IMG/VR virus record: IMGVR_UViG_3300044451_000119
Span: 1 to 53,029 of that record
Length of the DNA: 53,029 nucleotides
Reading direction: 5' to 3' (one strand)
Origin: a virus
Taxonomy: Duplodnaviria > Caudoviricetes
The translations under genes were made by a program, and so were the position numbers. This document shows, one piece after another, positions 342-29,100 of this stretch (position 1 is its first letter; each line of letters opens with the position of its first letter). The notes under the pieces are model-generated. The model did no database searches. It had not been told where the DNA came from and saw nothing but the letters and a program-made list of their open reading frames with translations.

Positions 342-992
342 TTAAAGATTTGCGAGAAAATCGTTGAAAAGATCCAACTTTTTCTCATCTAATTGTTTTT
401 GTGCAACCAAGGTATTTATTGTGTTTTTCATTGATACCATTCTCTTTTCGCGGAGAATGCCACCATCCCAAACCCATTCTTTACCTTCCATAATGCCTTC
501 AATAAAAGCATCTGGGGCAGATGGATCTGCAACAATATCTGCTGCTGTTGCTAACATAAAGTCATCAGAAACAATATTAACTCCCTCTCTATTGACAGAA
601 AGAGAACCAATTCCTCGGGAAGAAACACCAAGTTTTACTCCTTCCGAAAGAAGTGACTCTGCAATTTTTCCCATTGGAGTTAATAAAATTTTTGCCTTAC
701 CAATATAATTACTTCCACTTTCTCTAAGGGAAACAATTTTATGAGAAACTCTATCTAGATTAACAGTTGGTCCATCTGGATGACCAAGTTCACCAAGAGC
801 TCTTCCTTTTTCGATATAAGTTTCGTTGTATCTACCAACTTCACGGCGGAGCGTTTCCATTGGATACATACGTCCATTACGGTTTTTAATATCACCCTGA
901 AGGAATACACCTTCTATGTAAAGTGATTTTTTACCGTTACGGGATTCTACGATAACTTCTACGTTTTCGATTTCTTCTCTGATGAGTTTCAT
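342..992 (-). CDS. gp21: Prohead core protein protease
   Basis: Motifs LYIEGVFLQ, NRNGRMYP, ALGELGHP, GVSSRG(I)GS, DIVADPSAPDAF; position between gp20 and gp22. Confidence 0.97.
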   Translation of the reverse strand: MKLIREEIENVEVIVESRNGKKSLYIEGVFLQGDIKNRNGRMYPMETLRREVGRYNETYIEKGRALGELGHPDGPTVNLDRVSHKIVSLRESGSNYIGKAKILLTPMGKIAESLLSEGVKLGVSSRGIGSLSVNREGVNIVSDDFMLATAADIVADPSAPDAFIEGIMEGKEWVWDGGILREKRMVSMKNTINTLVAQKQLDEKKLDLFNDFLANL

Positions 993-993
993 T

Positions 994-1545
994 TTAGGCT
1001 TGTCCTGAAATTTGAACTTGGTGAATGTAAAGAACTCCTGTTCCAGAAGCAGTTCTTGCTGCTACTTTAATGGACTTTCTTGCAACGCAATCTTTATCAG
1101 TAAACGCCGCAGTAACAGCACTTGAATCGTGATCAACAGTAATTCTTGTTGAATAAAACCCACCAACATTAGAAGTAGTATTCACCGAAATTACACCTTT
1201 ATGTGTAAAATTAAAATCACTCTGAGTTCCACCAGTTAAAGATAAGTAATCTCCAACATCAAATGGTGATCCAGTTCCCTCAGGAAAATGTAAAATAGTT
1301 GTTGCACCAGTAGTAATACCAACAACTCTTTGAGAAGCTGGTGACAGTGCCAGAGTTTCAGAAGATCCTGCTGGAATAAAAAAGTCAATAACATCTGCTG
1401 TTGGTTCAGTTCCAATTGCAACGTTTGCACCAGAAGTTACAGCAGTTAATCTGAGAGTATCAGATTGAACGGAAATTGCGGTAGACTTTGCGCTTGTTAC
1501 TGTTATTGCAAATGATGTGCCAATACCTACTGGTTTAAGTGTCAT
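994..1545 (-). CDS. Conserved cyanophage virion/structural protein of unknown function
   Basis: 183-aa Thr/Ser/Gly-rich ORF with its own late-promoter motif at 1569-1575; usual position upstream of gp21. Confidence 0.75.
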   Translation of the reverse strand: MTLKPVGIGTSFAITVTSAKSTAISVQSDTLRLTAVTSGANVAIGTEPTADVIDFFIPAGSSETLALSPASQRVVGITTGATTILHFPEGTGSPFDVGDYLSLTGGTQSDFNFTHKGVISVNTTSNVGGFYSTRITVDHDSSAVTAAFTDKDCVARKSIKVAARTASGTGVLYIHQVQISGQA

Positions 1546-6739: not shown

Positions 6740-8389
6740 TTACATGTACTCCCACATATAAGAACGGTCACCATACTCATCACTATACCATCTATCACCA
6801 TCCGCATCAACAAATGTTGTATTACTATCTAGACCGTCAGAAATAAATCCAAATGGTGCCATGTCTTGTTCAATTTGATTTTTCTGCTCATCATAAAGTC
6901 TTTTTCTCACATCCTGATCAGTAAGTTCTTTAAAATAATCCTGAGCAACTAACCAAGAATAGATTACCAGACACATTGCTAAGTCGTCATTACATCCTTC
7001 TTCTGCTTCAAATGAATTATTCTTTTGAATAAATGTTGTAAGTTCAGAAATAATATCATAGTCATTGATAAAAAGTTTGTCCTCTTCAATCATTGTTTTG
7101 AGATTAAGAGAACCGATCTTTTTAACTGTCTTTGACATTTTCACACCAAGTTGAGTTTTCTTTCCTGAAAATCCTTGTCCGACTATTTGACCCGCTCTTC
7201 CTCTCATAGAACACATGAGAAGATTTTGATATTCCAAATCATATTGAAGAATCGATGCAACCTGATCACCAACATCGTTTACCTCACATAAAATAAAAGC
7301 GTTGTTATAACTTTTTGCTATCTCATAAATTACCGATGGAAAAAGCATCGGTTTAATTTCATTATCTCTATATTTCGCTACTACCTTATGAGGAAATGTT
7401 GTAATGTCAATAACTACAAAAGCAGAATAATCATTACCAACTCCTCTTGCAACGTCAACCGTTACAATGTAATCATTCTCTTTTACCGGTTCATGATATA
7501 CATCCAACCCAGCATTTTTCTTGATGGGGTTTTCATATACAAGAGATCGTAGCTTACTTGGAGCAATAAGAGTATCGACAGATCCAAGGAATTCGCACTC
7601 AAACTCAACTTTAAATTGAGATTCGGAAGTGTTTGCAATTGTTTGTCTTTTCCACTCAGAGTCTCTTCCAGGAACTTCTGTCCAATGAACTTCTGTTGGA
7701 ATATATTCATTATCACCCCGTTCTGCGTCATGCCACATGCGGTAGAAATGATTCATACCGTGTGGTGTTGAAACGACTATGACTTTTGTGCTTTTACCAG
7801 AAGAAATAGTAGGATAAACAGATGCAAAGAATTGGTCTGCAATATGGTTTGGAATAAACGCGAATTCGTCGAGGAAGATGACATTGTACGAACCGCCTCG
7901 GACAGTACTTGCAGATGTAGAAGCTGCCAATATCTTACTGCCATTTTCAAGCTCTAAACTACCTTTGTTCCAGGATATGATACCTTGCTGCAACCATTTT
8001 GGTAGGTTTTCATAAGCAAGTTGTAATCTTTGAAGGAGATCTCTTGCTGTTGATGCTTTGTTTGCAAGAATTGCAATATTTACATTATCATTGAAAACCG
8101 CATAATGAAGTAAGTATGAAACAACAGTGGTAGATTTACCAGTCTGTCTTGGCATCTTACAAATATTAAATCGATGATTATGGAAGTTTCGGATTAGATT
8201 CTCTTGGAATGGATACATTCCAAAAGGAATCAAACCTTCATCGAGAGAAACGATCTTTACATAATTTTTTGCAAAATAAACTGGATCATCATTGCACTTA
8301 ATAAATTCCTCAATCTGACTACCAGTGAACTCAATTGGAGTGTTAGCCTTTTTGAGGTTTGGATTACCAAGATATACACCTTCAACCAT
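6740..8389 (-). CDS. gp17: Terminase large subunit
   Basis: YLGNPNLK N-terminus, Walker A MPRQTGKST, Walker B IFLDEFAF, VVSTPHG, nuclease motifs VDVARG and DDLAM; no intein or intron visible. Confidence 0.98.
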   Translation of the reverse strand: MVEGVYLGNPNLKKANTPIEFTGSQIEEFIKCNDDPVYFAKNYVKIVSLDEGLIPFGMYPFQENLIRNFHNHRFNICKMPRQTGKSTTVVSYLLHYAVFNDNVNIAILANKASTARDLLQRLQLAYENLPKWLQQGIISWNKGSLELENGSKILAASTSASTVRGGSYNVIFLDEFAFIPNHIADQFFASVYPTISSGKSTKVIVVSTPHGMNHFYRMWHDAERGDNEYIPTEVHWTEVPGRDSEWKRQTIANTSESQFKVEFECEFLGSVDTLIAPSKLRSLVYENPIKKNAGLDVYHEPVKENDYIVTVDVARGVGNDYSAFVVIDITTFPHKVVAKYRDNEIKPMLFPSVIYEIAKSYNNAFILCEVNDVGDQVASILQYDLEYQNLLMCSMRGRAGQIVGQGFSGKKTQLGVKMSKTVKKIGSLNLKTMIEEDKLFINDYDIISELTTFIQKNNSFEAEEGCNDDLAMCLVIYSWLVAQDYFKELTDQDVRKRLYDEQKNQIEQDMAPFGFISDGLDSNTTFVDADGDRWYSDEYGDRSYMWEYM

Positions 8390-8567: not shown

Positions 8568-8999
8568 TTATTCCACCAGAGTTCCTCTTTGTCGTCTAAT
8601 AGTGTTTAACATCTCAAAGTCTTTTACTTTTTTGTCTCCCTTATACGACCAGGCATAACCGGAAACTATCATCTGCTCATTCAGTGATGTTGGTTTATTA
8701 TTGATAAACAAATGTCCCAGAATTCTACCATACTTCTCTGTGCTGTCTGGAAGTTCGGTCTTAATGAGAATATCTTTCGCACCCTCAACTTTCTTCTTCA
8801 ACCACTCTTTTGATTCAAGTCCAAGTTTCTTTTCGTATGCGTCCGTAGTGCGTGATTCAGGCGTATCAACACCAGCAAGACGAATTCGCTTAGTAAGGGA
8901 AATATCAAAACCCAAATCAATATCCGCATCTATCGTATCACCATCGACTACCTTATGAATCTCACGGATTCTGTAAATGTACGGGTCTCTGTCTGCCAT
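8568..8999 (-). CDS. Staphylococcal nuclease (thermonuclease, SNase-like) homologue
   Basis: Motifs KVVDGDTID, RIRLAGVDTPE, KYGRILG, LNEQMIVSGYA match the SNase fold catalytic pattern. Confidence 0.9.
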   Translation of the reverse strand: MADRDPYIYRIREIHKVVDGDTIDADIDLGFDISLTKRIRLAGVDTPESRTTDAYEKKLGLESKEWLKKKVEGAKDILIKTELPDSTEKYGRILGHLFINNKPTSLNEQMIVSGYAWSYKGDKKVKDFEMLNTIRRQRGTLVE

Positions 9000-9027: not shown

Positions 9028-9165
9028 TCAATCAAGAATAGAGTTTCTCCACTCTTCACTCATATTCACCATAATTGATTCTGCTGCTTCTGGTGTTTCT
9101 GCATATCCTTCATCAAGAAGGTGTGAGAGGATGATGTCGTATAAATCTACTTGTTCTTTTAATGC
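9028..9165 (-). pseudogene. In-frame duplicated C-terminal module behind the stop of the 194-aa gene (pseudogenised tail or readthrough extension)
   Basis: After ...GAT GAG TAA the same frame reads ALKEQVDLYDIILSHLLDEGYAETPEAAESIMVNMSEEWRNSILD*, nearly identical to a module inside the upstream ORF; it has no start codon before the module. Confidence 0.75.
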
Positions 9166-9455
9166 TTACTCATCCCAGTCCTTAGGGGTGGTTCTAACCT
9201 TGGTGCCTCCCTGCCCCTGATCTGCATATCCTGAACCATATTTCCAAGTGGAAGATGGTTTAACAAAAGGAGGTTTTTTCTTTCTGAATGGTTTTTTTGG
9301 TGGTAATGGTTCCTGGTTTACTTCTGTAATAATATTCTCTCTCCATTCTTCACTCATATTCACCATAATTGCTTCTGCTGCTTCTGGTGTCTCAGCATAT
9401 CCTTCATCAAGTAAGTGTGAAAGGATAATGTCGTATAAATCTACTTGTTCTTTTT
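9047..9455. repeat. Imperfect direct repeat of about 114 bp (about 9047-9160 and 9341-9454)
   Basis: Both copies encode KEQVDLYDIILSHLLDEGYAETPEAAE(A/S)IMVNMSEEWR; differences are mostly synonymous. Confidence 0.9.
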
Positions 9456-9750
9456 TTAGTTTTGATTGTGCTTCCTTTTCTGCTCTGTAACTATCTGGTT
9501 GTCCAGTTTTCTTTGCTTTTGCAGCAGCAGTTTTTCTTTTTGAAAACTCGGCACCTACTTTTGCCATTTTTGGGTCTCTATAACCGTGAGGGTCTTCTGG
9601 AGTTCCCATTCCCATACCACCTCCCTTGGAGAGTTTTTTAATATAATCTTTTTTTCCAAATTTTGGTTCTTGATAACCTTCATCAAGTTGCTGATTTTCA
9701 ACAACTTCCATATATGCTTCTTGAAGATTGTGATAGTCTTGTGCGTCCAT
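9166..9750 (-). CDS. Putative internal head protein with modular structure
   Basis: Acidic leader MDAQDYHNLQEAYMEVVENQQLDE, basic segments and the DLYDIILSHLLDEGYA module; late promoter at 9771-9778. Head localisation is inferred. Confidence 0.7.
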   Translation of the reverse strand: MDAQDYHNLQEAYMEVVENQQLDEGYQEPKFGKKDYIKKLSKGGGMGMGTPEDPHGYRDPKMAKVGAEFSKRKTAAAKAKKTGQPDSYRAEKEAQSKLKKEQVDLYDIILSHLLDEGYAETPEAAEAIMVNMSEEWRENIITEVNQEPLPPKKPFRKKKPPFVKPSSTWKYGSGYADQGQGGTKVRTTPKDWDE

Positions 9751-9776
9751 TTTTACAAATAATTTTTAGTTATTTA

Positions 9777-9887
9777 TTAAAATGGGAGTCTGAACTCTTT
9801 GGTATTGAGTTTCGGAATAGGAAGTTTCTCAAATGCTTTATTGACTCTTTTTTGAAGATCCTTTAAGTCTTCATTGGTAATATTCAT
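9777..9887 (-). CDS. Small hypothetical protein (36 aa), possibly a deletion-fusion remnant
   Basis: Not in the track. MNITNEDLKDLQKRVNKAFEKLPIPKLNTKEFRLPF; start overlaps the end of the upstream ORF. Confidence 0.5.
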   Translation of the reverse strand: MNITNEDLKDLQKRVNKAFEKLPIPKLNTKEFRLPF

Positions 9888-10041
9888 TGATGATATCCAG
9901 AATTCGATTTAATACTTCGTTCGCCCCCCTTTTCTTTTCCTCAGAAAAGTTTTTAAAAATATCAGAATTTTCATAAAGTAATTTTTTTAAACCATAAACT
10001 TTATGAAGCATATCTATTCGGGTCAACATGCCTCTTGACAT
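9871..10041 (-). CDS. Small hypothetical protein (56 aa)
   Basis: Not in the track. MSRGMLTRIDMLHKVYGLKKLLYE...GANEVLNRILDIINEYYQ; fills the gap in the operon direction. Confidence 0.65.
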   Translation of the reverse strand: MSRGMLTRIDMLHKVYGLKKLLYENSDIFKNFSEEKKRGANEVLNRILDIINEYYQ

Positions 10042-10073
10042 AATTTTAATCTCATGGAATAATATCTATCGCA

Positions 10074-10325
10074 TTAATCTTCTGGAAAATTTTTTTCAAG
10101 ATCTTTATTTCTTTGTTGCCAAGTGATTCCACCATCTATACCTCTACATGGATTGATACAAGCGTCATCACCTAAATTATTACAAACAAGTCCAGCAAGA
10201 TCTAATTCATTTCCCCGTTTACCAGTTCCAGACCAATAATGTTCACCATTTAACCAAATAGCACCACATTTGAGGCATTCTTTTCTTTCTAATGAAAGAT
10301 CAGACAGTTCTTTTTCAATGTTCAT
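10074..10325 (-). CDS. Cys-rich hypothetical protein
   Basis: ECLKCGAIWLNGEHYW...LDLAGLVCN...CINPC; pattern I recognise from cyanophage hypothetical proteins. Confidence 0.75.
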   Translation of the reverse strand: MNIEKELSDLSLERKECLKCGAIWLNGEHYWSGTGKRGNELDLAGLVCNNLGDDACINPCRGIDGGITWQQRNKDLEKNFPED

Positions 10326-10545
10326 TTAAATGTTCCTCTATTTCTTTTTTCAATGATGTTCTTGGTAGATTCAATTCCTTTTCGAGATTTCTCTTCATGA
10401 AAAACATTTGAATCTCAATCCAAGTGTATCTAATGTTTAGATCCACATATGAAAAAAGGCGTATAGTGCTTTCGTAACCACCATATGCAAAGAGTAACCC
10501 AATTAATAGGAGAATAATATAAAAACCAGTTAAGATAGGTTGCAT
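10315..10545 (-). CDS. Hypothetical membrane protein
   Basis: N-terminal hydrophobic helix (ILTGFYIILLLIGLLFAYG); overlaps the next gene start. Confidence 0.7.
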   Translation of the reverse strand: MQPILTGFYIILLLIGLLFAYGGYESTIRLFSYVDLNIRYTWIEIQMFFMKRNLEKELNLPRTSLKKEIEEHLNEH

Positions 10546-10650
10546 AGATTTCTCCGATAAAATCTTACAAGTAGTAAAATCATAATGTATATAGACTATA
10601 CTATCATGCCAATTATAATGTTGTAAAATTTAATACTAATATTCTGACAT

Positions 10651-10679
10651 TTGACAAGATATCAAAATATGGTTAGAAT
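10651..10679 (+). promoter_or_regulatory. Sigma70-type promoter TTGACA-N17-TAGAAT, antisense to the late operon
   Basis: TTGACA at 10651-10656, exactly 17-nt spacer, TAGAAT at 10674-10679, with AT-rich sequence upstream. Confidence 0.65.
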
Positions 10680-10773
10680 ATCTTTGTTAGAGATGATAGA
10701 TAAGGTATAGATAATATTTAACTATTTTGTTTCTCTCCGCCGCAGTGCCGCACGTATGTTAATATCTGCATTT

Positions 10774-12675
10774 TCAACATCTCCAACGACGACGTGCCTT
10801 ACAGATTGCCTTGTCTGGATCTTTTGAGCAATCAATGTTATGCATCTTCTGCTGCCCCGCTGAGCGGGCACAGAAGGACTTACGACGCTTTGATCTTTCG
10901 GGACCAGGATCTTTCTCAGTAACTGCTGTTTTGAGTTTTGAACCAGGATTTTCGCGACGATAAACATTAACTGCTTTTTGACTCATTCCATCAGTTTTAT
11001 CAGACTTGTTTACCTTTTGCCAATCTTCTTCAAATTCAACTTGTTCTCTATATGATGGTAATCCTGCTGAACCAGTTTGAATCAATGGTTGCCCAGGAGT
11101 AAATTCAGATATTACATGATTAACAACTTTTGATCCAGGGTATATTTTTTGAAGTTCATCTGTTACTTCTTGACGACTTGGTAGTTTTGCTTGTGGGAAG
11201 AACATACGAATTGAATAATACTTTCCTCTCCAAGACAACGTAATAGCGACAATGTTTCCTGTTTGAGCTTGCAGTCTTGTTGCTTCCTCAATTTGAGACT
11301 TAAATCCCTTAATAGGTTCTGGTTCAATTAAATCAACAATTTCTGTAAAAGTATTGCCATCAACATCTTCAATGGTTACATCCTCTGCTTTCACACAATT
11401 TGGATATCTTTTTCCAAACATTGTTTTCATGCCCTTTTTCTTGTACCCAGGCCAGCATTTTTCATTTAAAAGTTCATCTAAAATTTTATCAACTAATTTT
11501 TGCTCCTTCATTTCTCCACTTGCAACGTAATCTGCTGCAGTATCAATATAATCTGCTGCCTTGGTAATTTTTGATTGAACCCAAGCTTCTAAATTTCCTT
11601 CACCTTTTCCGATTGACATTTTTAATTTTTTAACTGCATCTTCAATATTTTTTAGTTCTGATCTTGCCATGGAATATTCATGATCTTTTTTTTCTTCAAG
11701 AGTTGGACACACGTTAGATCCGTGTATTGGGCAAGTAGTTCCTTTCTTTGTATGATTACAAAACTTTTCTTCTGCTGTAGGTTTTCCAATCCCCACTTCG
11801 GTTGGTTTTACTGACTGCCCAGGAACATTAAATCCTTTTGGAAGTGGTTTACATTCTTTGTTTGTGTTGCACCAATACATACCTTTGCCACATAGTTCTT
11901 CACCAAGAATTATTTGTTCTATAGTTATTTTTTCTTCCGATTTAGTTCCCCAATTGTCAGCACCAACTTTACGGCACTTTACGAGTGCGCCAGATGCATA
12001 CGCACTTGGCCAAACTCTATAACGTAATTTTACTTTATGATAGCAAGCATCTTTATTGCCACTGCCTTTACCTTTTTTATCTTTTGCTTCTTGTACGTTT
12101 ATTTCTTCTTTCATTTTTTTTCTTGGAGAATCGGTAGAAACATAAGTTGGTTTTGCAGCCCCTGATTTTTCTTGTTGACCGGGATCTGCGATTTTTTTTC
12201 TTCTGGATGCCGACAATCTTTCTGCTTTTGTCATACTTGCCCTTTTAGAAGAAGAAACGCATTTTGGCGTTCCCTCTCCTGGTTCATCACTTGCACAAGT
12301 CCCACCAGTCACTACATTCACCCAACCAGGCTTTCCATCTTTTGATTTTGATTTTCCAAACCAATCACGAAGACCTTCCTCATTCATTTCTTTTGTTTTT
12401 TCTTTCATAGAGTTAATGAATTTTCTGTAAACTGCTGCTTCTGATGTTTTTCCAGATGCTCTTGCTCTTTGTTCCATTGCGATAGCTGCTTGAATTTTAT
12501 GAGCGTGTGAACGACTTGATTTTTTTATTTTAGTTACTGATTGTTTTGCAGTCTCAACATCCTTAAATCCGAGCCCATGAATAGTGCCTTTTGGATTTTC
12601 ATCCGTATAAAGATCAGAGTGTTTTTTTGATCCCGCAGGTTGTCCTGGTTTTCTTGAAATACGAGGATTGTTCAT
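10774..12675 (-). CDS. Multi-module basic, Cys-rich protein; putative internal head polyprotein
   Basis: 633 aa made of distinct modules (SDLYTDENPKGT; GLRDWF; KDACYHKVK..WPSAYASGALVKCRK; DHEYSMARSEL; CWPGYKKKG; SFCAR..KARRRWRC) separated by acidic xxE linkers. Confidence 0.75.
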   Translation of the reverse strand: MNNPRISRKPGQPAGSKKHSDLYTDENPKGTIHGLGFKDVETAKQSVTKIKKSSRSHAHKIQAAIAMEQRARASGKTSEAAVYRKFINSMKEKTKEMNEEGLRDWFGKSKSKDGKPGWVNVVTGGTCASDEPGEGTPKCVSSSKRASMTKAERLSASRRKKIADPGQQEKSGAAKPTYVSTDSPRKKMKEEINVQEAKDKKGKGSGNKDACYHKVKLRYRVWPSAYASGALVKCRKVGADNWGTKSEEKITIEQIILGEELCGKGMYWCNTNKECKPLPKGFNVPGQSVKPTEVGIGKPTAEEKFCNHTKKGTTCPIHGSNVCPTLEEKKDHEYSMARSELKNIEDAVKKLKMSIGKGEGNLEAWVQSKITKAADYIDTAADYVASGEMKEQKLVDKILDELLNEKCWPGYKKKGMKTMFGKRYPNCVKAEDVTIEDVDGNTFTEIVDLIEPEPIKGFKSQIEEATRLQAQTGNIVAITLSWRGKYYSIRMFFPQAKLPSRQEVTDELQKIYPGSKVVNHVISEFTPGQPLIQTGSAGLPSYREQVEFEEDWQKVNKSDKTDGMSQKAVNVYRRENPGSKLKTAVTEKDPGPERSKRRKSFCARSAGQQKMHNIDCSKDPDKAICKARRRWRC

Positions 12676-12827
12676 TCAACTGGTTTTGATTTAGTCTTCT
12701 CACTTTTTGCTCTTTTTTTTCTCGCGGCACAATGTGCTTTTTGAGAAAATCCTTTTGGATTTGAGCAATCAATACTTCTTTTATATTTATTGCTCCACTC
12801 TTCTTGAAACTCTTTATAAGTTTTCAT
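12672..12827 (-). CDS. Small basic protein with a T4 capsid-targeting-sequence-like N-terminus (51 aa)
   Basis: Not in the track. MKTYKEFQEEWSNKYKRSIDCSNPKGFSQKAHCAARKKRAKSEKTKSKPVE; ATGA overlap with the 633-aa gene. Confidence 0.8.
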   Translation of the reverse strand: MKTYKEFQEEWSNKYKRSIDCSNPKGFSQKAHCAARKKRAKSEKTKSKPVE

Positions 12828-12831
12828 TTAT

Positions 12832-14358
12832 TTATGCGAGGGTAATGTTTGCTGATCTTAAAACTCCATCAGTTCCTCGTACTTTAATTCTTAAATTAGT
12901 GTTACTTATAAGTTCAAAACTCATTTGAGAATTATTTGGAGGTGTTGAAGTGGTTCCTAACCCAATGGTAGATATTCCTACAATTAAAGAATTTCCGACA
13001 ACTTGGGAACTACCATTAACAAAAAGACTTGTACCAGAAGCACCTACTGCACCAACAGTTAATGTGTGCGAAGAGTTTGTTGTTCCTATTCCAGTGTTGC
13101 CACTTACAGATTGTCGATGAAGAGTAGAACCACTTACCGTCCAAAAGTTTAAATCTGATTGATGAGAGATAAACTGCAAAATATCATTTGCTCTGGCAGA
13201 AGTTGCGATGCCAACTGTTGTTGAGTTTATTTCTGTAAATTCTGATGAATCGAGTTTAATGCCATTGTAGAAAACATCTATTGAATTTGTATTTGCATCA
13301 TATGCAGAAACTGTAAATGATGTCTGACCAGTAGATGCAGTTGCGTTTGTAACAGATCTCTTTGGAGTTGTGGCTGTTTTTGGTCGATATGTAATAATAT
13401 CAACATCGTCACCATCAAAAGTCGATGATGATATACCTACGGTTGTTCCATTTGTTGCAGTATAATCAGATGATGCTAAACGAACTCCGTTTAAGAATAC
13501 ATCAAGATATCCAACTTCATAATTTACACTAAAACTTGTCTGCCCTCCTGTTGCAGTAAAACGAGTTTCATTTTTTTCAAATATCCCAGTTAACCCAGTA
13601 AAATCTAACTTGATTGTGCTTATTCCTGCAGAAGGAGTTGTAATTGAACTTACCGCAGATCCAATAAAGTTTAATGTAGTTACTCCCGATCCAATGTAAG
13701 TTCCAGTGCTCTGAACTCCAACACCAGCAATTAATCTTCCATCAAATGCTGTTATAATTCCTGTGTATATTGCATTTCCTATAACATGTAGTTTTGCAGT
13801 TGGATTTGTGCTTCCTATACCAAGATTATCAGAAACATAAGCACCACCTGTAACTTGAAGTGGTTGTGCTGCTGTACCAGTTGAGGTTGCTGTTCCAATA
13901 GAAACTGGACCATTTGTAAAATCAACTTCCGTGGTAAAAGTAGAAAAACCAGTTACATTTAAGTTTGTTGAATTTAATCTTGTAACAGTTCCAATTGTGC
14001 CAGTTAAGTTGGTTGTATCAAACCTTGTAACAGTTCCAATTGTTCCAGTAAGATTAGTTGTGTCTAATCTTGTAATTGTTCCTACACCAGCATTAATTTG
14101 ACCACTAAACGTTGCTGCTGTAAGAATTCCAATTATACTTACATTGCCATTATATGAAATATGACCCGCACCATAAGATTCTGCCCAAGGATTAACTGCG
14201 CGTACCGTTGTAGCGATTCCTACGCCGCCAGTATCCTGCCTGACATACAAAGTTCCATCATAAGTGTTTAGAGCTAATTCGCCTAGTTCTAAATTTGCCA
14301 ATGTTGGTCTCTTATCAGCAGTTGCTGATCTCTTTAACTTAATTTTTGAATCTGCCAT
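12832..14358 (-). CDS. Tail-fibre-like structural protein
   Basis: N-terminus IKLKRSATADKRPT...GELALNTYDGTLY typical of phage fibre anchors; TNLTGTIGTVTR repeats; LGIGSTNPTAKLHV motifs. Confidence 0.8.
   Translation of the reverse strand: MADSKIKLKRSATADKRPTLANLELGELALNTYDGTLYVRQDTGGVGIATTVRAVNPWAESYGAGHISYNGNVSIIGILTAATFSGQINAGVGTITRLDTTNLTGTIGTVTRFDTTNLTGTIGTVTRLNSTNLNVTGFSTFTTEVDFTNGPVSIGTATSTGTAAQPLQVTGGAYVSDNLGIGSTNPTAKLHVIGNAIYTGIITAFDGRLIAGVGVQSTGTYIGSGVTTLNFIGSAVSSITTPSAGISTIKLDFTGLTGIFEKNETRFTATGGQTSFSVNYEVGYLDVFLNGVRLASSDYTATNGTTVGISSSTFDGDDVDIITYRPKTATTPKRSVTNATASTGQTSFTVSAYDANTNSIDVFYNGIKLDSSEFTEINSTTVGIATSARANDILQFISHQSDLNFWTVSGSTLHRQSVSGNTGIGTTNSSHTLTVGAVGASGTSLFVNGSSQVVGNSLIVGISTIGLGTTSTPPNNSQMSFELISNTNLRIKVRGTDGVLRSANITLA
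13975..14085 (-). repeat. Coding tandem repeat, 45-bp period (GTxTRxxxTNL)
   Basis: GTITRLDTTNLTGTIGTVTRFDTTNLTGTIGTVTRLNSTNL. Confidence 0.8.
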
Positions 14359-14972: not shown

Positions 14973-16892
14973 TTAGAAAGCACCAGCGTCAACAGTGATG
15001 TTTTCTAAAATTCTTGCAGTTCCATCATAACGAATTACATCAGTATCACCAGCAGCATCATTGACTTTTAAAGAACCAATTTTTAAATTGCCAACAACAG
15101 TTGCAGCACCAGAAACATTAACGTCAATGGCACTCATCAACCCATTAATGTTAACTCTGGCAGAAAATGTAGAAACTCCAGTTACATTAATTCCACCCGC
15201 ACCAACAAGTAATCCACCACCGCCATAAGTTAAGTTTGCACTATCTTCAAGGGATCCAAAAATTCCTGCCAACACAACTCTGCCAGAAGTAAGATCTGAG
15301 ACAGTTGCAGATGATAGAACTGTTTCTCCACCACTAATGTCAGCTCCACCATTAGCATCAATTGCACCAGTAAACGTCGAAACACCAGTAACGCTTAGGT
15401 TAGTTGCATTGATTCTTGTTACAGTTCCTATCGTGCCAACTAAGTTGGTAATAGTGCCACTAGTGCTGTTTAATGTTGTAATTGTACCAATAGTTCCAAC
15501 AAGATTCGTAATAGTACCATTTGTATTATTCAGAGTAGTAATTGTAGCAGCAGTACCTGTTAGGTTTGTGATTGTGCCACTAGTGCTGTTTAGTGTTGTA
15601 ATAGTAGCAGCAGTACCAGTTAAGTTAGTAATTGTACCACTAGTACTGTTTAATGTTGTAATTGTACCAATAGTTCCAACAAGATTCGTAGTGTTGAGTC
15701 TTGTAATTGTGCCAATAGTACCACTGAGATTAGTTGCAGTTACATTTGTAACGCTTAATGTTGCAATCGTTGCTGCACTTGAAACATTGACATCATCAAG
15801 TTCCGCTAATCCATCTACATGTAAATTTCTCCATTCTTGTGTTGGACGCCCAAGATCATAATTATCATCTGCACTTGGGGAGAAATTTTGATTTACTTCC
15901 CACGAGTCTGTTGCATTCCGCCAAAGTAGAGTATAATTATTATCTCCATATACTTCAATACCAGCACCATTTGCACCAGCATCTGATGGAGTGGATGTTG
16001 AAGCAATACCAACAATTTTGTCCTCAACATCCAATCTTTCGGTGTGAATGATTGTCTCAGTTCCATTAACAGTCAAATTACCATTGATTGTTAAATTCTG
16101 AGAAATTAAAACATTCCCTCCACTAAAAGTAGATGCACCAGAAACATTGACGCCGCCAGCACCTACAACTAATCCACCACCACCATGAGTTAAGTTTGCG
16201 CTATCTTGAAGTGCGCCATTTGTGCCAGCAAGAACAACTCTACCAGAAGTTAAATCAGAAACTGTTGCTGATGAAAGGACAGTTTCTCCACCACTAATAT
16301 CTGCACCACCATTAGCATCAAATGCACCAGTAACAGTTAAAGCTCCTCCAACAGATGCACCTTTTGTTACTACCAAGTTTGTAGTAACTGTCAATGCTCC
16401 ACCAACAATAACATTGTCTGGCATTCCAATAGTGACCTGGTTATCACTCACTGCCGTATTAATTTCATTTGCAGTTCCTGCAAATGTTATTGTCTGTCCA
16501 GTGCTTACTACGTCAGGAGTTCCACTATCAGCAGCAATTGTAAAATCACTTACAACTTCTCCCCAAGAAAGATTACCAGATCCGTCTGTTTTGAGATAAT
16601 AATTATTTGTTGGAGAAGATGGAAATGTATAAGTTACATCTGCTGCAATGTTTGCTGGGGCAGCAAAAGAAATTGAATTTGTTCCATTTGCAGTTGCTTC
16701 GTATACTCTTACTGCACCACCAGTTGATGCAGTTTCTGTTGTCCAAAACCTACCACTGCCAATGAGTTTATTTCCTGCTGCACTACCAACGTATAAGTCA
16801 TGTTTGTCAGTTGTAAATCCAGGTTCTCCAATATTCAATGCTGGGAGGTTTGCAAGTAAACCTCTTTTAAATTTTAAAATAGGTGCCGCCAT
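14973..16892 (-). CDS. Tail-fibre-like structural protein with internal repeats
   Basis: MAAPILKFKRG...GEPGFTTDKHDLYVG N-terminus; TINGNLTVNGT motifs; repeats; ends DAGAF. Confidence 0.8.
   Translation of the reverse strand: MAAPILKFKRGLLANLPALNIGEPGFTTDKHDLYVGSAAGNKLIGSGRFWTTETASTGGAVRVYEATANGTNSISFAAPANIAADVTYTFPSSPTNNYYLKTDGSGNLSWGEVVSDFTIAADSGTPDVVSTGQTITFAGTANEINTAVSDNQVTIGMPDNVIVGGALTVTTNLVVTKGASVGGALTVTGAFDANGGADISGGETVLSSATVSDLTSGRVVLAGTNGALQDSANLTHGGGGLVVGAGGVNVSGASTFSGGNVLISQNLTINGNLTVNGTETIIHTERLDVEDKIVGIASTSTPSDAGANGAGIEVYGDNNYTLLWRNATDSWEVNQNFSPSADDNYDLGRPTQEWRNLHVDGLAELDDVNVSSAATIATLSVTNVTATNLSGTIGTITRLNTTNLVGTIGTITTLNSTSGTITNLTGTAATITTLNSTSGTITNLTGTAATITTLNNTNGTITNLVGTIGTITTLNSTSGTITNLVGTIGTVTRINATNLSVTGVSTFTGAIDANGGADISGGETVLSSATVSDLTSGRVVLAGIFGSLEDSANLTYGGGGLLVGAGGINVTGVSTFSARVNINGLMSAIDVNVSGAATVVGNLKIGSLKVNDAAGDTDVIRYDGTARILENITVDAGAF
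15405..15735 (-). repeat. Coding tandem repeat with mostly 60-bp period (ITNLxGTxxTITTLNxTxGT)
   Basis: About five imperfect copies visible at DNA and protein level. Confidence 0.85.
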
Positions 16893-16926: not shown

Positions 16927-17946
16927 TTAAAAAGTTCCATAGTCAATAATGTCATCATCTATATTGTCAGCAAGATCCATCACTTCTGACGGGTCCACAA
17001 AAACAAAAGTACTTGTAGATGCCTCGTAAATAAGAAGTCTCCTGTTTGCCAAATTTGAGGTGTTGACATCACTTAACGTAACTAAACTTCCACCAGATGC
17101 ATCAGATCCTTCCCATTTGCCAGTTGTTGAATTGTATTTCAAAAACTTGTTGTTGACAGTTGCACTTGCTCGGTCAATGTCGTCCATGAATTCAAGACGA
17201 ACTTCTCCACCACCACCCTGAACAGAAATATCTCTTAGACCTTGATAAAGAAGATTTCTGAGATATCTCACTTCTTTTTTAAGACTTTCTATTTCGGTAT
17301 TTTTTTCTCCAACAATATTATCATCTTTGATGAGAGATTTTAAAGTTTTTAATACCTGAGATACTGATGGGTTTTCTTCTTCGATTTTTTCACCATTTTC
17401 AATTTCTGATGAATCCGAAATTTCATCAATTAAATCTTCATTCTCATTTTGAATATTGTTAATTTCTTCATTTGTTTCTTCTTCTTTATTTTCTTCCTCA
17501 AAAGTAATTTCGATTGGAATTTCATAATCTTTAATAGGAACTTCAATTAACGATCCGGATGTTTCTTGTTTGTCTTTGTTAAGAGTAACAAACTCATCTA
17601 CAACTTCAATTGACTCATTAAATAACCAATTTTCAAATGCTTTTATTTCCTGTGTTTCTTTTTTCTTTTTTTTCTCTTCTTTCTTTTTTAATACTACAAG
17701 TTCTTCAAATAAGTTATTAATATCTATTTTTGGTTCTTCTATTTTAATTTCTATATCTTTTTTTGATTCTTTTATATCCGATGATTTTTTATTAGAAATC
17801 TTAGAAACTTTATCAAGTTCAGTCAGAACAAAATTTAAGTCTCCTAAAAGAGACTGATATTCTTCTTCTTTCTTCTTTTTTTCCTCTTTGATAAGAGAGA
17901 AGAAATCGCCTAGATTTGTTTGGTTTTCATCTTTTGTTCTAGGCAT
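16927..17946 (-). CDS. Hypothetical acidic/coiled-coil protein downstream of gp16
   Basis: Glu/Lys-rich N-terminal part, then GGGGEVRLEFMDD and a fibre-like C-terminus (FLKYNSTTGKWEG; ends DYGTF). Confidence 0.75.
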   Translation of the reverse strand: MPRTKDENQTNLGDFFSLIKEEKKKKEEEYQSLLGDLNFVLTELDKVSKISNKKSSDIKESKKDIEIKIEEPKIDINNLFEELVVLKKKEEKKKKKETQEIKAFENWLFNESIEVVDEFVTLNKDKQETSGSLIEVPIKDYEIPIEITFEEENKEEETNEEINNIQNENEDLIDEISDSSEIENGEKIEEENPSVSQVLKTLKSLIKDDNIVGEKNTEIESLKKEVRYLRNLLYQGLRDISVQGGGGEVRLEFMDDIDRASATVNNKFLKYNSTTGKWEGSDASGGSLVTLSDVNTSNLANRRLLIYEASTSTFVFVDPSEVMDLADNIDDDIIDYGTF

Positions 17947-18364
17947 TTTCTCTATTAGATAAACCCTGCTTCAATAATTTTTGAAGTTCTGCTGTGGATC
18001 CAACAAATAGGGCATTATTAACTGTGGTGGGCCCTTTTGGCGTGTCCTCTGTTTCCAAGTCTTTTAATTTTCTTTGCAAATCCATCAATTTATCAGTTGC
18101 ATCAGAAACACTCTTAATCAATTGACCAGCAACTTCATATGCTCTTGGAGTGTCACTTTCCTGAGCCAATTCCAATATATTATTTATTGCTTCTTGACCT
18201 TTTTCAATTATGGAATATAAGTTTCCCCTTGTATATTCATAGTCTTTTCTGATGTCCGTGCTACTAGATACTTTTTGTATTTCTTTTGATAATTTTTCAG
18301 CAGATACAATTTCTCCTTCTACATCAAATACATCATTCAATTTGCTGAATTTATCGGTTTTCAT
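17939..18364 (-). CDS. gp16: Terminase small subunit
   Basis: Motifs DYEYTRGNLY, PRAYEVAGQLIK, NNALFVGSTAELQK. Confidence 0.93.
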   Translation of the reverse strand: MKTDKFSKLNDVFDVEGEIVSAEKLSKEIQKVSSSTDIRKDYEYTRGNLYSIIEKGQEAINNILELAQESDTPRAYEVAGQLIKSVSDATDKLMDLQRKLKDLETEDTPKGPTTVNNALFVGSTAELQKLLKQGLSNRENA

Positions 18365-22919: not shown

Positions 22920-23150
22920 CTATCCTAATTTTTCTATAAAAGTTTTAAGAAGATTTTTTATTTCGTCAACATCGTCTTTTATATTACTAATTTCATTTTC
23001 AATATTCTTAACTCGATTCACTTCATTTTCTTTTTGTTTTTTTAGACGCATATATTTCTCATATTCGTATTTAGAGTCATTAACAATCGCATTGCTCTTC
23101 TGATCTCTCAAAAGAGCATCATTATCTTTTACTTTAATATAATCACTCAT
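22920..23150 (-). CDS. Small coiled-coil protein following the VrlC-like gene
   Basis: YIKVKDNDALLRD..SNAIVN...IKDDVDEIKNLL; translationally coupled to the upstream gene. Confidence 0.8.
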   Translation of the reverse strand: MSDYIKVKDNDALLRDQKSNAIVNDSKYEYEKYMRLKKQKENEVNRVKNIENEISNIKDDVDEIKNLLKTFIEKLG

Positions 23151-26100
23151 TATGCCAATGCGAGTGCTCGCATGTCTTTGATCTTAGGAACGTAAGCTTG
23201 ATTTATTGATGTCAATACAATTTTAATTCTAAAATACTTAAAGTCTGGTAAGTTATTTGCAGTAAATTCATAATTTGCATAACTATCAATTGTAGAAATT
23301 GACTGATTAATATAATTTTTATCAATGAACTTGTCTGATGTTCCATCATTATTTGCAAAATTAATAACATCACCATCAACATCCAGATTCTGATATCCTG
23401 GGAAAGGAATGAAAACTGGGTCTCCATTCTCAGAATTATCTATTGCATAAAATGCTCTAATATCGGAATCTACATTTATATGAGCAGATAAGAATAATTT
23501 GATTGATCTTGCTGGATTTTTCAATCTAACAATTTTAGTTACATATTGACAATCTGATGGATCTTCAAAGAACGAATTAACTCTTGGATCAGTCTTATAG
23601 TCTGTAAATACGCTATTGATTCTATTAGAAGTTGTAATTATATTGACTCTTGTTGTATCAATAATAGGAGATAACCTTGTATTATCTGTTGCCAGATTCA
23701 TTGACATTGTAAGAGATTTATTTCCAGGTAAAGTTGGAAGTAAATTCTTTTCATTTACCTTAGACGCAATAATTCTTGGAGAATTCAGATAATTTGTTCT
23801 ATTAAGAATTACAGATTCATATCCTTGATCAATGAATGATGTTTCTGAACCACTAATACTTGTTCCACTGACTGTTCTAATCTGAGCGTTGACAGATGTT
23901 AGATTTGGAATAAAGGTTTGAATATTAGGAGTTACAGCTTCGAATGGAATGTTTTGAGTTGCTTTTGCAATATTTCCACCAGCAGTTGTTGTATCATTGA
24001 AATATAGTGGAATATATGTAGACTGTTCATTACTTCTATCTACACCATAATCTGAATCCTTCGTATTTAATTTAATGTAGTAGTAATTCAATCCGACTGA
24101 ATTTGCAACCGTAGAATCGGATAATCTGTGTGTCTTATTAATTCTTCTCAGTGAAACTCCACTGTACTCATACTTATAAATCACATCACCACTAGTAATT
24201 GCCTTTCTTACACTGTTGTCAATTCCCCTGGTAATAGTGATAAGTTGACCATTACTTACACCTTCATATTTAATGATTTCTTCATTGACAAGAATGTATC
24301 CTGGATTTGCACCAGATACTAGAAGATTTTCAAAAATTTCAAATCCAGAAACACTTCCAATTGCAATCTCTCCATTATAGTCCTTAGTATAAGGAACAGT
24401 AATAGTTGTTGGAGAAACGTCTGGAAGTACACCTTTTAATGTTACATAGTTTGTATTTGAATGCATACCATGGTTTTTGTGATTGACTTTAAAGTGCAAT
24501 CCATCAGATACTACATCTATTGCATCAGAGATGTACAGTTCAGATCCAGAGGAATTTATAATCGCTGTTGTTACCCCTGCACTAGTATATTTGTAAATTG
24601 TGTTAGCAACACCCGCAATAAAGTTACCTTGTACGTTATCAATGACCAATTGATTTACATCGCTCACTGATGTAACATTAATCTTTAAGTTAGTACCAGT
24701 TGATGTTGTGCCAAAAGTTGCGGTTAAAACATCACCAACAGAGTATCCAGTTCCACCAGACACTAATGCTATTGTTGCAACTACACCATTTTCAACTGTT
24801 ATATTTGCTGTTGCATCTTTTCCTGTTCCAGTTAAAGTTTTTAATGCAACCGCAGAATAAATTTCATTTCCTTCTAATGGAGCATAACCAAGTCCGCCAT
24901 TTAAAATGGACAGACCACTTGCCTTTCCAACTGACCCAACATAATTGCCATAAGCACCAGTTGAAAGTTGAATCACACTGTTGCCAAGGATAAAATTATT
25001 ATCAGAAAGTGCAGATGAAATACCAATCTTAATTCTTCTTGAATTTGATGTAATTGGATTTTGTACTAAGATAGGAATTTGTGCATTTCCTTCTGCTAAA
25101 TCGGGGTTAAAGAATGAAATACTTCCACTAGTTGCAAACTCGGCTCTATACAGTTTGAATGTCAAATCATCTGTAACTGTTGGTTGCCAGTTTGATGCAT
25201 TTTGTGACTTGTATAGTGCGCCGAGAATTGGTTGAGTTGAAACCAAGACTTGTGAAGAAGATGATGGTTTTTTATCAACTTCACCTAGCCTAGATGTCCA
25301 AACTTTGTAGTTATTTGAATTAGTTGATAAAACAATTGCATAATTTCTCTTTCCTTCCAGATAAACTGGTGAATTAAATGCAAAGTGAGTTGGAGTTGTT
25401 GCATCAGAAGTCTTCACCACAGAACTTGCATCAAGAGTAACTTCACTGAATGGAAGAACTACATCTGATGGTTGATTAAAATCAACAGTTCTAAGTTGGC
25501 AAGTAACTGGCAGTTCATCATCTTTATCTTTAAAGTAAATATCAAGACCTGTTAAGAAAACACCAGTTTCATCATCAACAATGAAAGTCTGTGCAAGAGG
25601 ATCAATATATTTTCCACCAAAAGATGAAACAACAGAATCTTTAAATGTAAACTTACTAATCTTCTTAGGACTCTTAATTGAAGCAATATCATCTTCAACT
25701 GCTTCAATTGTGCCAACTGACAAGTACTTGTCCTCGGATACAGAATTAAGAACGCGAGTAGAAGAACTATTGACTGAACTATTAGTCAGTTTAAATACTT
25801 TTTCACCAGTTGTGAACTTTGGATTAATTGCAACATTTGGATCTGGAATATAGAAGGACCCGATTGCAGTTCCAGTGCTATCGTTTACGATTCTGACATT
25901 TTGAACTGTTGCTTGTGCTCCACTCGTTTGTCCATATAGTTTCATTCCAACTGCAATAAATCCAAAGTATTCACCTTGTGGTTTGTTTGCAAGAGAATAT
26001 GTATCAATATTTAGAAGTGTTGATGTGGATGAATACTGAGCTGGAACTGTGAGATCTGAATTGTATGGGTTAAACTTATGTGTTTCCGTTGGAGCATTGT

Positions 26101-29100
26101 ATGGACCAAACTTGTGATTTGATATTGCCACTCTGAATGCAATCTTTGGATTCACTCCACTGATAACATCATCATAATCAATTCCTGGGAAGAATCCACT
26201 GACAGTTTCCCCAACAGAGAAAACACCAGAATCCATTGTAATTTCAACCAATTTGGGAACCACAAAATTATTAACATCTACGCCATCAAAAAATGCATAC
26301 ATTCTAGAATATGGTTGCAGACGCTTAGAAACAAATTCTACGTTTCTTGAACGGATAAATGGAGTAATTTCCGAAGCAATTGATTTATCACCAACCGTTA
26401 AAGTTTCAAATTCTTGGGTATCAATAGTTTGAGAATAAGTCTTATCAGTATCGGATGTGATAGATTCAATTGTTACACCATCTGAACTCTTTTCAAGACC
26501 AATCCATCTTAGATCTCCATTATTTGAAGAAGTTCCATTATTATTAAAGAACTGTGTATAAGTTGATCTTGTTTCTGATTTATCATTCAATAAGTTTCTA
26601 TTTCCTGTCCAAATAATGTTCCACGACTCCCAAATAGTGGGAATAAATCCAATTTGAGAATCATAATTTTCTAACTTAGCAATTTTATCAATTGTTGAAG
26701 TAAAGTTTCCAGCAACATTGAGATTTTCTGGATCGAGTTTTACAGAATCTACCCAAATATCCGAATCTGGTGTAAGATCAAGAGTTCCCTCCCAGAAGTT
26801 AACCAGATATGGTGAAATTTGTTCAGTTCTAGTTGCAAATGGTTGAGATAACCATTCAGTTGTGGTGTAATCTAAACTAATTACATCGCCAGTTTTCTTG
26901 ACATTTGAACCTTGAAGATCCGTTACATAGTTTAAATCAGCATAAGGATTAGATGACTGTCCGATTCCAATAATAGAATTTGAACCTAAAATTAGATCAA
27001 TCGCACTGGTGTAGTGTGATGGTCTTATCTCTCCGACGTTTGGATTGATCGAATTCTTTACACCGTTTCTTACATCTTGATTGGAACTGTTTTTGAAATT
27101 ATCTACAAGAAAACCAGACTTAAATTGATTGATGCCATTTTTATCTGGAACTGAAAGGTTTGCAGTGTCTGTTTCGAGTAAAGAAAGTGTTGTAAACTTT
27201 TCTAGGCTGTTAATTCTAGTTTCCAGTCTAGAAATATCAGCCATTGTGTATCTCTTATAACTTTGTTGAGATACAGACGCATTTTGTGTATTATACAGAT
27301 AAGGTGGTAAGAAAATTTGAGCAACCTCGATTGCATCATCAATTGAAGTTGGTGGATTTGGTGTTTCCGAAGATACACCTTGAACCAACTTAAATATTCC
27401 ATTTTTATTGAGGAAAACTTTGTCTATTCTTGGAAGATAGAATTTAAAATCAAGTAAAATCTGCTCATCAGATGCCAAAATATTTTTTGCACTATTTCCC
27501 GATTGTGCAAATGATCTTCCAGAAAACTCAAATGGTGATTTTGCACCAGATGAAACCGTATAAGATGCAACTCTTGGACGAATATCAATAATGTCTGTAT
27601 TTCTTAATTCATTGTAATATGGAACATCCTTATTAAAATTGAAGGAGTTGTATGAGTTTACAGTTGTGACATCTCCATCATCATTTGAAGAATAATAACC
27701 ATATTGGAAATAAACTTTAATTTTTTTCTTTGGAGAATCTTTTTCTGAGATTCTTCTTATTCTTCCATAGTCATAAAAAGTATCTCTTTGACCATTATCT
27801 AGAATATATGAACTTGTAATATCTTTACCATTAGCAGTTACGCTAGAAACCCTAGATTCAATCCCAGATTCCTCAAAAACGAGGATTTCCCCGACCGTGA
27901 AAGATTTTTGATTGAGATATACAATTTCAACTGTGGTGTCTGTTGTTTTCTCAACATATGTCGCTCTGGCACCGCTGAGAGCGCCTCTAACGGTCTCTCC
28001 TAGGATTAGATCTGCCGTAGTAGCATTTGGTCCTGTAAGCGATTCTAGGGACAATCTGGGAGCACTTGGATTATCTGTTCCGTAAGATTCAAAAACACCA
28101 CGAAGTTTGATAATGTCTGGAACATTAAGAGAAATTTCTTCGTCTTGAACTCTTGTTCCATATGGATAGTTTCCATGAGAAAGACCATCATTTAACGTAG
28201 TTGTTCCAATTCCAGACGAAGCATTTGCTGAGTATGAAACAATCAAACTGCTTGATCTCTGATTTTCTTTTGCTTTGGAAACTACATTAATTTTTCTTAA
28301 AGTGGCAATCAGTCTTGCATTTCCACTCTCGTTGATGCCGTTTATAGTTAATCTAGTAGAACCTGCACCAAACGTGAACATATCAGACCTTAAAGCCTGA
28401 ACTGTACCATCAGAGAAAGTTAAGATATATCTTTCTTCGTCAAAAGGGAGGAAAGTTTCATTTGCTGCTGCTATTACCGTATTGGTAGAATTTGCACTTA
28501 CAACAACATCATACTGTTTTCTAATTGTTAAATTTGAAGATGACAAATTAATATCTGAAACGTTTCTTCTTGAAAGCGGTGTATAGAGAGTATTGTCAAA
28601 AGATTCTGGTAATTTTGTACTAATTACTTCTAAATCCGAAACTTTTATTGTATTTTTTGGTAAATTTCCATTATTGACACCAGCAACACTTGTAGTTCCT
28701 TCAACTATAAGGGTTGTAAATCCATTATTTGTTCCTATGGACTTAACTTTTGCATAAGACTTATCATAAGCCGTTGCAGCAGCCTGTATGCTAAATGCTG
28801 ATGTTGAATATGAAATAAACTCTACAATGTCACCAGCACTCAGTCCAACTCCAAATACAACAGAAGTGCCACTTAGTGCATCATAGTTTGAATAATCAAG
28901 TTTAATACCGTTTACGTAAACATCTAAAAATCCTGGTGTATATGAAACCGTGAATGTTTGTTGACCCTTTGTTGCTGTAAATTTTGAACCAGAAAAATAA
29001 TTACCACTTCCATAGAGAATCACCTCTACCAAATCATTTGTAAATAATTTATAGTTAAGTAAGAATGATGAGTTCTGAGCAAATTGCACAAAATCATTTT

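Follow-up and report, generated by a model that had tools for sequence, protein, structure and literature searches.

We analysed a 53,029-nucleotide (nt) stretch of Caudoviricetes DNA (IMG/VR virus record IMGVR_UViG_3300044451_000119, positions 1 to 53,029), hereafter called the window, in which all genes lie on the minus strand and make up a structural gene block of T4-like cyanomyovirus type. Our subject is a set of three genes, p51, p633, and p194, which an initial annotation had described as a candidate capsid-cargo system with products of 51, 633, and 194 amino acids (AA); all three open reading frames (ORFs) were recovered at these sizes. The principal results are that p51 opens with a tag whose resemblance to the capsid targeting sequence (CTS) of the T4 internal proteins is well supported by sequence comparison, and that p633 is a chain of mini-modules for which cassette-like shuffling among relatives is likewise well supported by the module orders found. 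The features on which the argument depends are listed here, with an arrow marking the candidate cut at a junction:

12672-12827, minus strand: p51, 51 AA, isoelectric point (pI) 9.9, a leader followed by the Cys-pair module A (WSNKYKRSIDCSNPKGFSQKAHC...)
12798-12827, minus strand: the CTS-like leader of p51, MKTYKEFQEE, residues 1-10
10774-12675, minus strand: p633, 633 AA, pI 9.5, a leaderless chain of nine mini-modules and a homologue of T4-GC119 and phrog_727
12391-12675, minus strand: M1, residues 1-95, helical, standing directly behind a leader elsewhere (L092)
11941-12375, minus strand: M2 and M3, residues 101-245, the core with the highest conservation, one Cys pair each, preceded by MNE↓E and VQE↓A
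11701-11901, minus strand: M4a and M4b, residues 259-325, rich in Cys (6 Cys) and more variable than any other part
11383-11691, minus strand: M5, which is helical and acidic, and M6, with a CWPGY...C Cys pair; LEE↓K and LNE↓K stand ahead of them
11056-11292, minus strand: M7, residues 462-540, a small alpha/beta unit starting at IEE↓A
10777-11031, minus strand: M8, residues 559-631, which is Pfam DUF6321 (PF19846; 45.9 bits, the cut-off being 28.5), with FEE↓D ahead of it
9166-9750, minus strand: p194, 194 AA, with an acidic 24-residue leader MDAQDYHNLQEAYMEVVENQQLDE (containing LQE↓A), a basic middle, a helical LSHLLDEGY...MSEEW module, and a Pro/Lys-rich tail
342-992, minus strand: the prohead protease gp21 (Peptidase_S77, PF03420; 107 bits against a cut-off of 27), 40% identical to T4 gp21

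The p51 protein begins with MKTYKEFQEE, as compared with MKTYQEFIAE in IPII and IPIII and MKTFKEFTST in IPI of T4 (NC_000866). The DNA pattern for M-K-T-(F/Y)-x-(E/Q)-F has a single match in the window, that in p51, against 0.00 expected, and in the T4 genome it matches ipI, ipII, ipIII, and gene 61.1 only, with 0 matches for the reversed control. According to passages of a T4 review, the first ten residues of an internal protein (IP) are enough for head loading, targeting depends on residues 4 and 7 and processing on residues 8 and 10, and gp21 cleaves after L/I-x-E. At the targeting determinants, Tyr/Phe4 and Phe7, p51 agrees with the T4 CTS, and within its Q8-E9-E10 stretch F7-Q8-E9 fits a broader hydrophobic-x-Glu motif, position 8 being neither Ile nor Leu; p51 contains no strict [LI]-x-E at all. 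Removal of nine residues, as predicted for trimming, would leave a product of pI 10.1. The mature part of p51 showed no homology to IPI, IPII, or IPIII, and tblastn of 50,697 phage records at E<=1 returned 17 records, all of them cyanophages; we therefore class the locus as one that works like the T4 internal proteins and not as their homologue. T4 gene 61.1 itself (NC_000866 18966-19130, L303) encodes a hypothetical protein of 54 AA that shares the MKTFKEF start with IPI.

Relatives place the p51 module in 37 distinct contexts. The heptad stands at the start of the ORF in 22 of these, usually as MKTFKQFQE(D/E)W, and a long ORF begins directly with M(G/S)W... in 10; the module is internal in three, one of which bears RKTFEEF, and the remaining two are cut by a contig end. 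In the window p51 and p633 overlap by ATGA, and a frameshift fusion of the two was considered and rejected: a TGA codon lies just ahead of the p633 ATG in the p633 frame, so p51 and p633 are separate polypeptides here.

The leader is found on many other viral proteins. A scan of IMG/VR for DNA encoding MKTFKQF listed 80 loci with at least 85 such ORFs which, after duplicate removal, comprised 15 p51-like and 67 other proteins; the counts that follow hold among these matches listed. Residues after the heptad were outside the query and hence free to vary in the tally of 67, among which position 8 was hydrophobic in 42 (background 21%), position 10 was Glu in 39 (background 6%), Glu stood at position 9 or 10 in 59, and Ala at position 11 in 15. 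Median values for the mature parts were about 100 residues in length and 9.9 in pI, with pI above 8.5 in 51/66. The cargos behind the leader included DUF6321 alone, M6, M1, DUF5661, nucleotidyltransferases, and RlpA-like domains; others were module M2 and an M7-like unit that stands alone just after the p633 homologue in phages S-SCSM1 and S-B43. The S77 protease was present in three of five large leader-bearing contigs, both complete ones included, with two to three leader ORFs each.

Several individual loci deserve mention. A 14-kb viral contig (L134) has four ORFs starting MKTFKQFI(S/T/L)E over about 2.4 kb, and a complete 168-kb T4-like genome (G001; L207, L210) has three leader-bearing ORFs within 2 kb, two of which carry a putative ADP-ribosyltransferase-like R...STS...E pattern. 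In SSM2_108 of phage S-SM2 (L001) and in two further loci (L122, L148), the leader is followed by a stretch closely like the mature N-terminus of gp23 (TPTNSVGNGGYTSAGGQTVAGY versus QPTNAVGNGGYTSSGGQTVAGF), fused in S-SM2 to a p51-type module. One T7-like cyanopodovirus, P-SCSP1n (L294, 11941-12359), encodes a stand-alone DUF6321 protein and a second, very basic protein of 58 AA between the major capsid and tail tube genes; passages of the P-SCSP1u cryo-EM paper contain nothing on the small basic gene after the capsid gene. Full-text literature searches turned up no paper with the string MKTFKQF and none linking a capsid targeting sequence with cyanophages, apart from a T4 review, which cites a cyanophage count study; Petrov 2010 does not mention internal proteins.

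Alternatively, these genes may encode late intracellular proteins, for example nucleic-acid-binding or host-modifying ones, that act in the infected cell and are not purposely packaged, with MKT(F/Y)K(E/Q)F a favoured translation start spread by recombination. The modules are basic, as DNA and RNA binders often are; DUF6321 occurs as a leaderless stand-alone protein in phages that have no S77 protease, near replication genes in HTVC100P and Skadi-3; and S-SCSM1 ORF30 has the leader and is unlisted as a virion protein. We nevertheless consider this explanation improbable: the passages of the T4 review describe the same leader as experimentally sufficient for T4 head loading, a preference in translation starts would leave unexplained the hydrophobic-x-Glu kept after the heptad, and purified S-SCSM1 particles contained two proteins that bear the leader or are homologous.

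The modules of p633 (M1-M8), and module A of p51, were defined by tblastn breakpoints, which fall at about residues 95, 192, 247, 328, 396, 433, and 462 of p633, and by iterated profile searches. The protein matches phrog_727 with E=5.5e-94. The breakpoints, and the matches of 14 different PHROGs to separate stretches of it, show the modules described in the initial annotation to be real units; p633 and p51 are basic (pI 9.5 and 9.9), and the 16 Cys of p633 are mostly paired per module. Among 103 ORF translations from 82 loci, 41 different module strings were found. The order in the window is M1-M2-M3-M4a-M4b-M5-M6-M7-M8, and others include A-M5-M2-M3-M6-M8 and M4b-M5-M6-M1-M2-M3-M7, with DUF5661 at the start of some relatives. 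The 41 orders bear out the proposal that the modules are shuffled like cassettes. Modules A, M1, M2, M6, M8, and the M7-like unit also occur alone. The family is large, with all 8000 of 8000 scored candidates matching (at least 8000 members) and 3211 cluster representatives for the M2-M3 core at E<=0.001.

An AlphaFold2 model of whole p633, based on a 33-row alignment, reached a pLDDT of 45 and a pTM of 0.21, too poor for domain definition, and VIA-align on this model returned generic helical matches only (Z<=8.1). With 41 orders and no single AlphaFold2 fold, a reading of p633 as one domain of invariant order fails. Modelled alone, DUF6321 formed a small four-helix unit (pLDDT 77), for which Foldseek gave 0 matches against the PDB and the best VIA-align Z was 4.5, with no functional lead. 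Searches of PDB sequences with phmmer gave 0 matches for p633 and only matches with E>0.6 for p194, and all clusters obtained from the ESM Atlas were viral and labelled 'hypothetical protein'. The name DUF6321 occurred in 0 papers on full-text search, and Pfam gives no function for DUF6321 or DUF5661. The search for a solved cyanomyovirus particle found none, the nearest solved relatives being portal proteins, two of them gp20 entries.

The initial annotation had also described the modules as bounded by hydrophobic-X-E linkers, a claim that held for the broad motif and not for the strict T4 form. In p633, [LIVMF]-x-E lies within -8 to +2 of seven of the eight internal module starts, and cutting there would yield eight pieces of 7-11 kDa, six of them with a pI of at least 8.3. 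Whole linkers are rich in Glu (15%, against 6% in modules), and their hydrophobic residues alternate with it in both directions. Part of the linker evidence weighs against cleavage. Strict [LI]-x-E is unenriched in p633 (7 seen against 4.6 expected, p=0.17) and reached only z=1.7 in a linker test, and in a whole-linker shuffle test E-x-hydrophobic was as enriched as hydrophobic-x-E. Because the reversed motif was equally enriched, this undirected test was ambiguous and was replaced by a position-specific one.

The latter used 859 unique junction windows anchored on nine module cores, and it should be read as a count over dereplicated, phylogenetically non-independent windows with anchors picked by ourselves, which tells against it. 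Hydrophobic-x-Glu with the Glu at -4 to -1 of the core was present in 508 of the 859 windows. Two control offsets gave counts of 121 and 142, and the reversed motif stood at the junction in 167. Upstream of M2 the consensus is hydrophobic (79%)-x-Glu (86%)-Glu (53%), followed by the core start Gly-Leu-Arg-Asp-Trp-Phe, regardless of the module that precedes it. In relatives that have p51 and the long ORF fused, F-S-E↓M or M-N-E↓M stands at the joint, which coincides exactly with the p51 stop/p633 start of the window. In addition, 13 internal joints in relatives are full leader-like decamers, such as NRTFLQFMDE↓AAAAWQRK, which suggests that the chains arose by fusion of leader-tagged genes. A gp21 gene in the same phage, as the initial annotation had supposed, is present in the window. 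In an alignment of gp23, S-SM2 has I-A-E↓Q where T4 has its cut site L-T-E↓A, so that the cyanophage protease probably keeps a T4-type cut preference. Also in favour of a link to the protease, DUF6321 is a single ORF of 84-94 AA with no leader in all four complete phages lacking an S77 match that were inspected (two pelagiphages, a cyanopodovirus, and a Microcystis myovirus).

Virion proteomes of relatives bear on the question of packaging. In the proteome passages on phage S-SCSM1 (PMC9602691), the nucleotidyltransferase ORF91 is a virion protein detected by mass spectrometry (MS), and this protein (SSCSM1_91) starts MKSFLQFLKE↓A, a near-identical type of leader. The S-SM2 cytidylyltransferase T4-GC190 starts MKSFFQFLSE↓A, and passages of PMC3037559 report its S-SM1 counterpart as detected in virions. 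Both the record and the proteome of S-SCSM1 (PMC9602691) list the p633 homologue SSCSM1_29 among the virion proteins, and the p633 homologue of S-B43 is annotated as a structural protein.

These data would also fit an uncut p633, a multi-domain virion protein such as a neck, fibre, or baseplate accessory or a whole head protein, in which hydrophobic-x-Glu is simply the linker that travels with the modules. The gene sits among fibre-like genes, p633 has no leader, MS detection of its homologue is silent on particle location and on cutting, the linkers alternate acidic and hydrophobic residues in both directions, and the AlphaFold2 model is a loose chain (pLDDT and pTM as above). We regard this as possible and clearly the strongest of the alternatives. 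It does not readily accommodate the seven module types (A, M1, M2, M6, M8, M7-like, and DUF5661) that occur singly behind a T4-like leader, nor a motif before the cores that is directional and position-specific across unrelated modules, nor the fact that fused and split forms differ exactly at the hydrophobic-x-Glu↓Met joint.

The third gene, p194, belongs to a second family; the features associated with it, and the promoter-like motif beside p51, are as follows:

9771-9778, minus strand: AATAAATA, resembling a late promoter, about 27 nt ahead of the p194 ATG; a conserved 5' leader comes after it
9028-9165, minus strand: 45 codons in frame after the p194 TAA, a second LSHLLDEGY...MSEEW copy with no start codon of its own
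12829-12836, minus strand: CATAAATA, overlapping the fibre stop codon and ending 1 nt before the p51 ATG

All three genes had been called late-promoter-associated, and this description fits cleanly only for p194. The CATAAATA motif at p51 would be too close to serve that gene if T4 spacing holds, and the sole AATAAATA for p633 lies inside p51, 109 nt upstream. Across the window WATAAATA is not over-represented (15 seen against 14.2 expected), with 14 of the 15 on the coding strand.

At least 420 relatives of p194 were found in IMG/VR. The family shares an acidic leader MDAQELRNLQEAYMEVVENQQLDE, a variable basic stretch, and the LSHLLDEGY module (54 of 55 distinct ORFs); a further segment, EPRF...AEKEAQSK, stands before LSHLLDEGY in some relatives and after it in others. 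TAAATA occurs at -45 to -15 in all 53 of 53 distinct upstream regions of these relatives, mostly as (T/A)ATAAATA at -27 or -26, and the S77 protease was present in four of five large contigs with p194-family genes. The genes of this family appear as self-contained late cassettes (window 9751-9800, L213-L292), often with a hairpin and T-run, then (T/A)ATAAATA, a near-invariant 5' leader actaaaaagtatttgtaaaaATG, and a conserved acidic N-terminus.

The 45 codons that the initial annotation had appended to p194 ('194+45') were confirmed as lying in frame behind its TAA, where they repeat p194 residues 99-143 approximately. Most likely they are a scar, a module copy stranded by recombination. Were the TAA read through, the 45 codons would instead be translated as a C-terminal extension of p194, and the frame is indeed kept, with six synonymous and one non-synonymous changes between the 37-codon core of the tail and the internal copy, as if the protein were conserved; recombination from module to module explains this synonymous bias equally well. 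The two closest full-length relatives (L213, L214) have unrelated, stop-containing sequence after the same TAA, and most p194 relatives end right after the LSHLLDEGY module. In addition, tRNA genes are absent from the window, and the extension lacks a start codon. We rejected read-through on these grounds as very unlikely.

Based on these data, we favour the reading that the three genes make up a head cargo locus of the T4 internal-protein type, organised as a polyprotein, and from the sequence evidence we give it roughly an even chance of being right. Under this reading the first seven to ten residues of p51 would dock the protein on the prohead scaffolding core, as the T4 CTS does, after which gp21 would probably remove the leader by cutting after Glu9 (F-Q-E). 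The p633 protein, built from the same pool of mini-modules, would be translated separately but coupled to p51; it would probably be enclosed in the prohead, where gp21 would cleave the hydrophobic-x-Glu junctions to give about eight, mostly basic, peptides of 7-11 kDa, and these would remain with the DNA and exit together with it. Polyprotein cleavage of p633 by gp21 can reasonably be inferred from the junctions, and we infer targeting, injection, and any effector role in addition to cleavage. Roles of the modules as DNA counter-ions, anti-defence proteins, or take-over factors are guesses from T4 precedent. It is likewise only a guess that p194, as a second late-expressed family whose acidic leader has an L-Q-E↓A site, is cargo too.

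A number of observations weigh against this interpretation beyond those from the linkers. The p633 protein starts MNNPRISRKP, lacking the leader, which is present at the start of only 3 of its 120 closest homologues and only 3 of 150 M2-M3 representatives. At position 8, a processing determinant in the T4 review's passages, p51 has Gln where T4 has Ile. The leader-bearing ORF30 of S-SCSM1 is unmarked as a virion protein in the record, and the passages on these proteomes show no cleavage product of any member. A well-placed late promoter is found only at p194, and p194 itself starts MDAQDYHN, without a T4-type leader. No p194 relative is tied to virions, and the p194-type acidic leader is absent from S-SCSM1, S-SM2, and S-B43, for which reasons the cargo status of p194 is only a possibility. 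DUF6321 also occurs in phages with no S77 match, in two pelagiphages near replication genes, so that what this module does may be independent of loading into the capsid.

We tentatively extend the idea to marine T4-like phages as a group, whose heads may carry combinatorial sets of small, mostly basic peptides, either as leader-tagged singles or as chains cut at portable hydrophobic-x-Glu joints, delivered with the DNA as counter-ions, anti-defence factors, or take-over factors. The leader and the joint would then constitute a universal address-and-cut cassette, by which any module or enzyme could be recruited as injected cargo in some of the ocean's most abundant viruses. As described in the passages on S-SM1 and S-SCSM1, cyanophage particles repeatedly contain 'non-structural' and unidentified proteins with no stated loading mechanism, and a T4-type tag with cut module chains would, if real, explain how such proteins enter the particle. 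It would also allow the genes for injected cargo to be predicted in uncultured marine T4-like phages.

The remainder of the window places the locus in its genomic setting:

start of gene only, minus strand: gp22, followed in gene order by gp21
994-1545, minus strand: DUF7243 protein, 183 AA, between gp21 and the portal gene gp20
in order between the DUF7243 gene and gp17, minus strand: portal gp20, tube gp19, sheath gp18
6740-8389, minus strand: large terminase gp17 (terL)
8568-8999, minus strand: SNase-family gene, between p194 and gp17
9777-10545, minus strand: four small ORFs (phrog_1181, phrog_484, phrog_566, and one without a match)
between p633 and p194, upstream of the small ORFs, minus strand: AT-rich spacer, 228 nt
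12832-14358 and 14973-16892, minus strand: fibre-like genes
17939-18364, minus strand: small terminase gp16

The three genes stand between gp16 and gp17, after the two fibre-like genes. Their location between the fibre genes and the terminase was thus given correctly in the initial annotation, which had left unmentioned the four small ORFs, the spacer, and the SNase gene. The nearest named relatives are the Synechococcus phages S-SM2, SynMITS9220M01, Bellamy, and S-SRM01, at a protein identity of about 52-66%; one IMG/VR contig (L007) is 98-99% identical, and megablast of the region matched short pieces only, in 5 records.

Some further observations concern the neighbouring genes. The DUF7243 protein occupies the place of T4 gp67/gp68 and has no hydrophobic-x-Glu of the L/I type. 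In the region 9777-10773, the 228-nt spacer ahead of the four small ORFs contains several sigma-70-like hexamer pairs; one of these ORFs has a hydrophobic N-terminus, one (phrog_484) is Cys-rich, and the others are the phrog_566 ORF and the one with no match. Together, spacer and ORFs resemble a small cassette that belongs to a different expression class and is inserted among late genes. Two giant ORFs of 2916 AA and 4415 AA (23150-31900 and 33485-46732, minus strand) lie farther upstream within the structural block. The window terL is uninterrupted, unlike that of four related loci (L009, L028, L049, L081), where the match is split by inserts of about 0.9-1 kb near residue 265, with another insert near residue 89 in L009; an intron, intein, or homing-endonuclease insertion would give such splits.

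Compared with known systems, p633 is a member of T4-GC119/phrog_727 of the T4-like cyanophages (Sullivan et al. 2010, PMC3037559), and its S-SM2 homologue SSM2_109, labelled T4-GC119, lies between gp16 and gp17 as in the window. In the passages of that paper T4-GC119 is called a hypothetical protein only, and our literature searches found no reading of it as leader-linked, protease-cut cargo. Two marine-phage domains of Pfam are represented in the family, DUF6321 as the C-terminal module of p633 and DUF5661 at the start of some relatives. For phiKZ and SPN3US, passages of a review describe many head or ejection proteins that are cut after Glu, some at several sites, by gp21-related proteases; these differ from the present case in their S/A-x-E motif, in being large proteins and not chains of shuffled mini-modules, and in having no T4-type leader. 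The closest comparison is with the T4 internal proteins. The mature p51 is dissimilar to these, p51 has Gln8 in place of Ile, and the main cargo would be a long leaderless module chain. The two systems are alike in a leader that is near-identical in p51, in the small size and basic character of the cargo, in the presence of a gp21-type protease gene, in the hydrophobic-x-Glu that follows the leader in most leader ORFs, and in the occurrence of one leader on many unrelated cargos.

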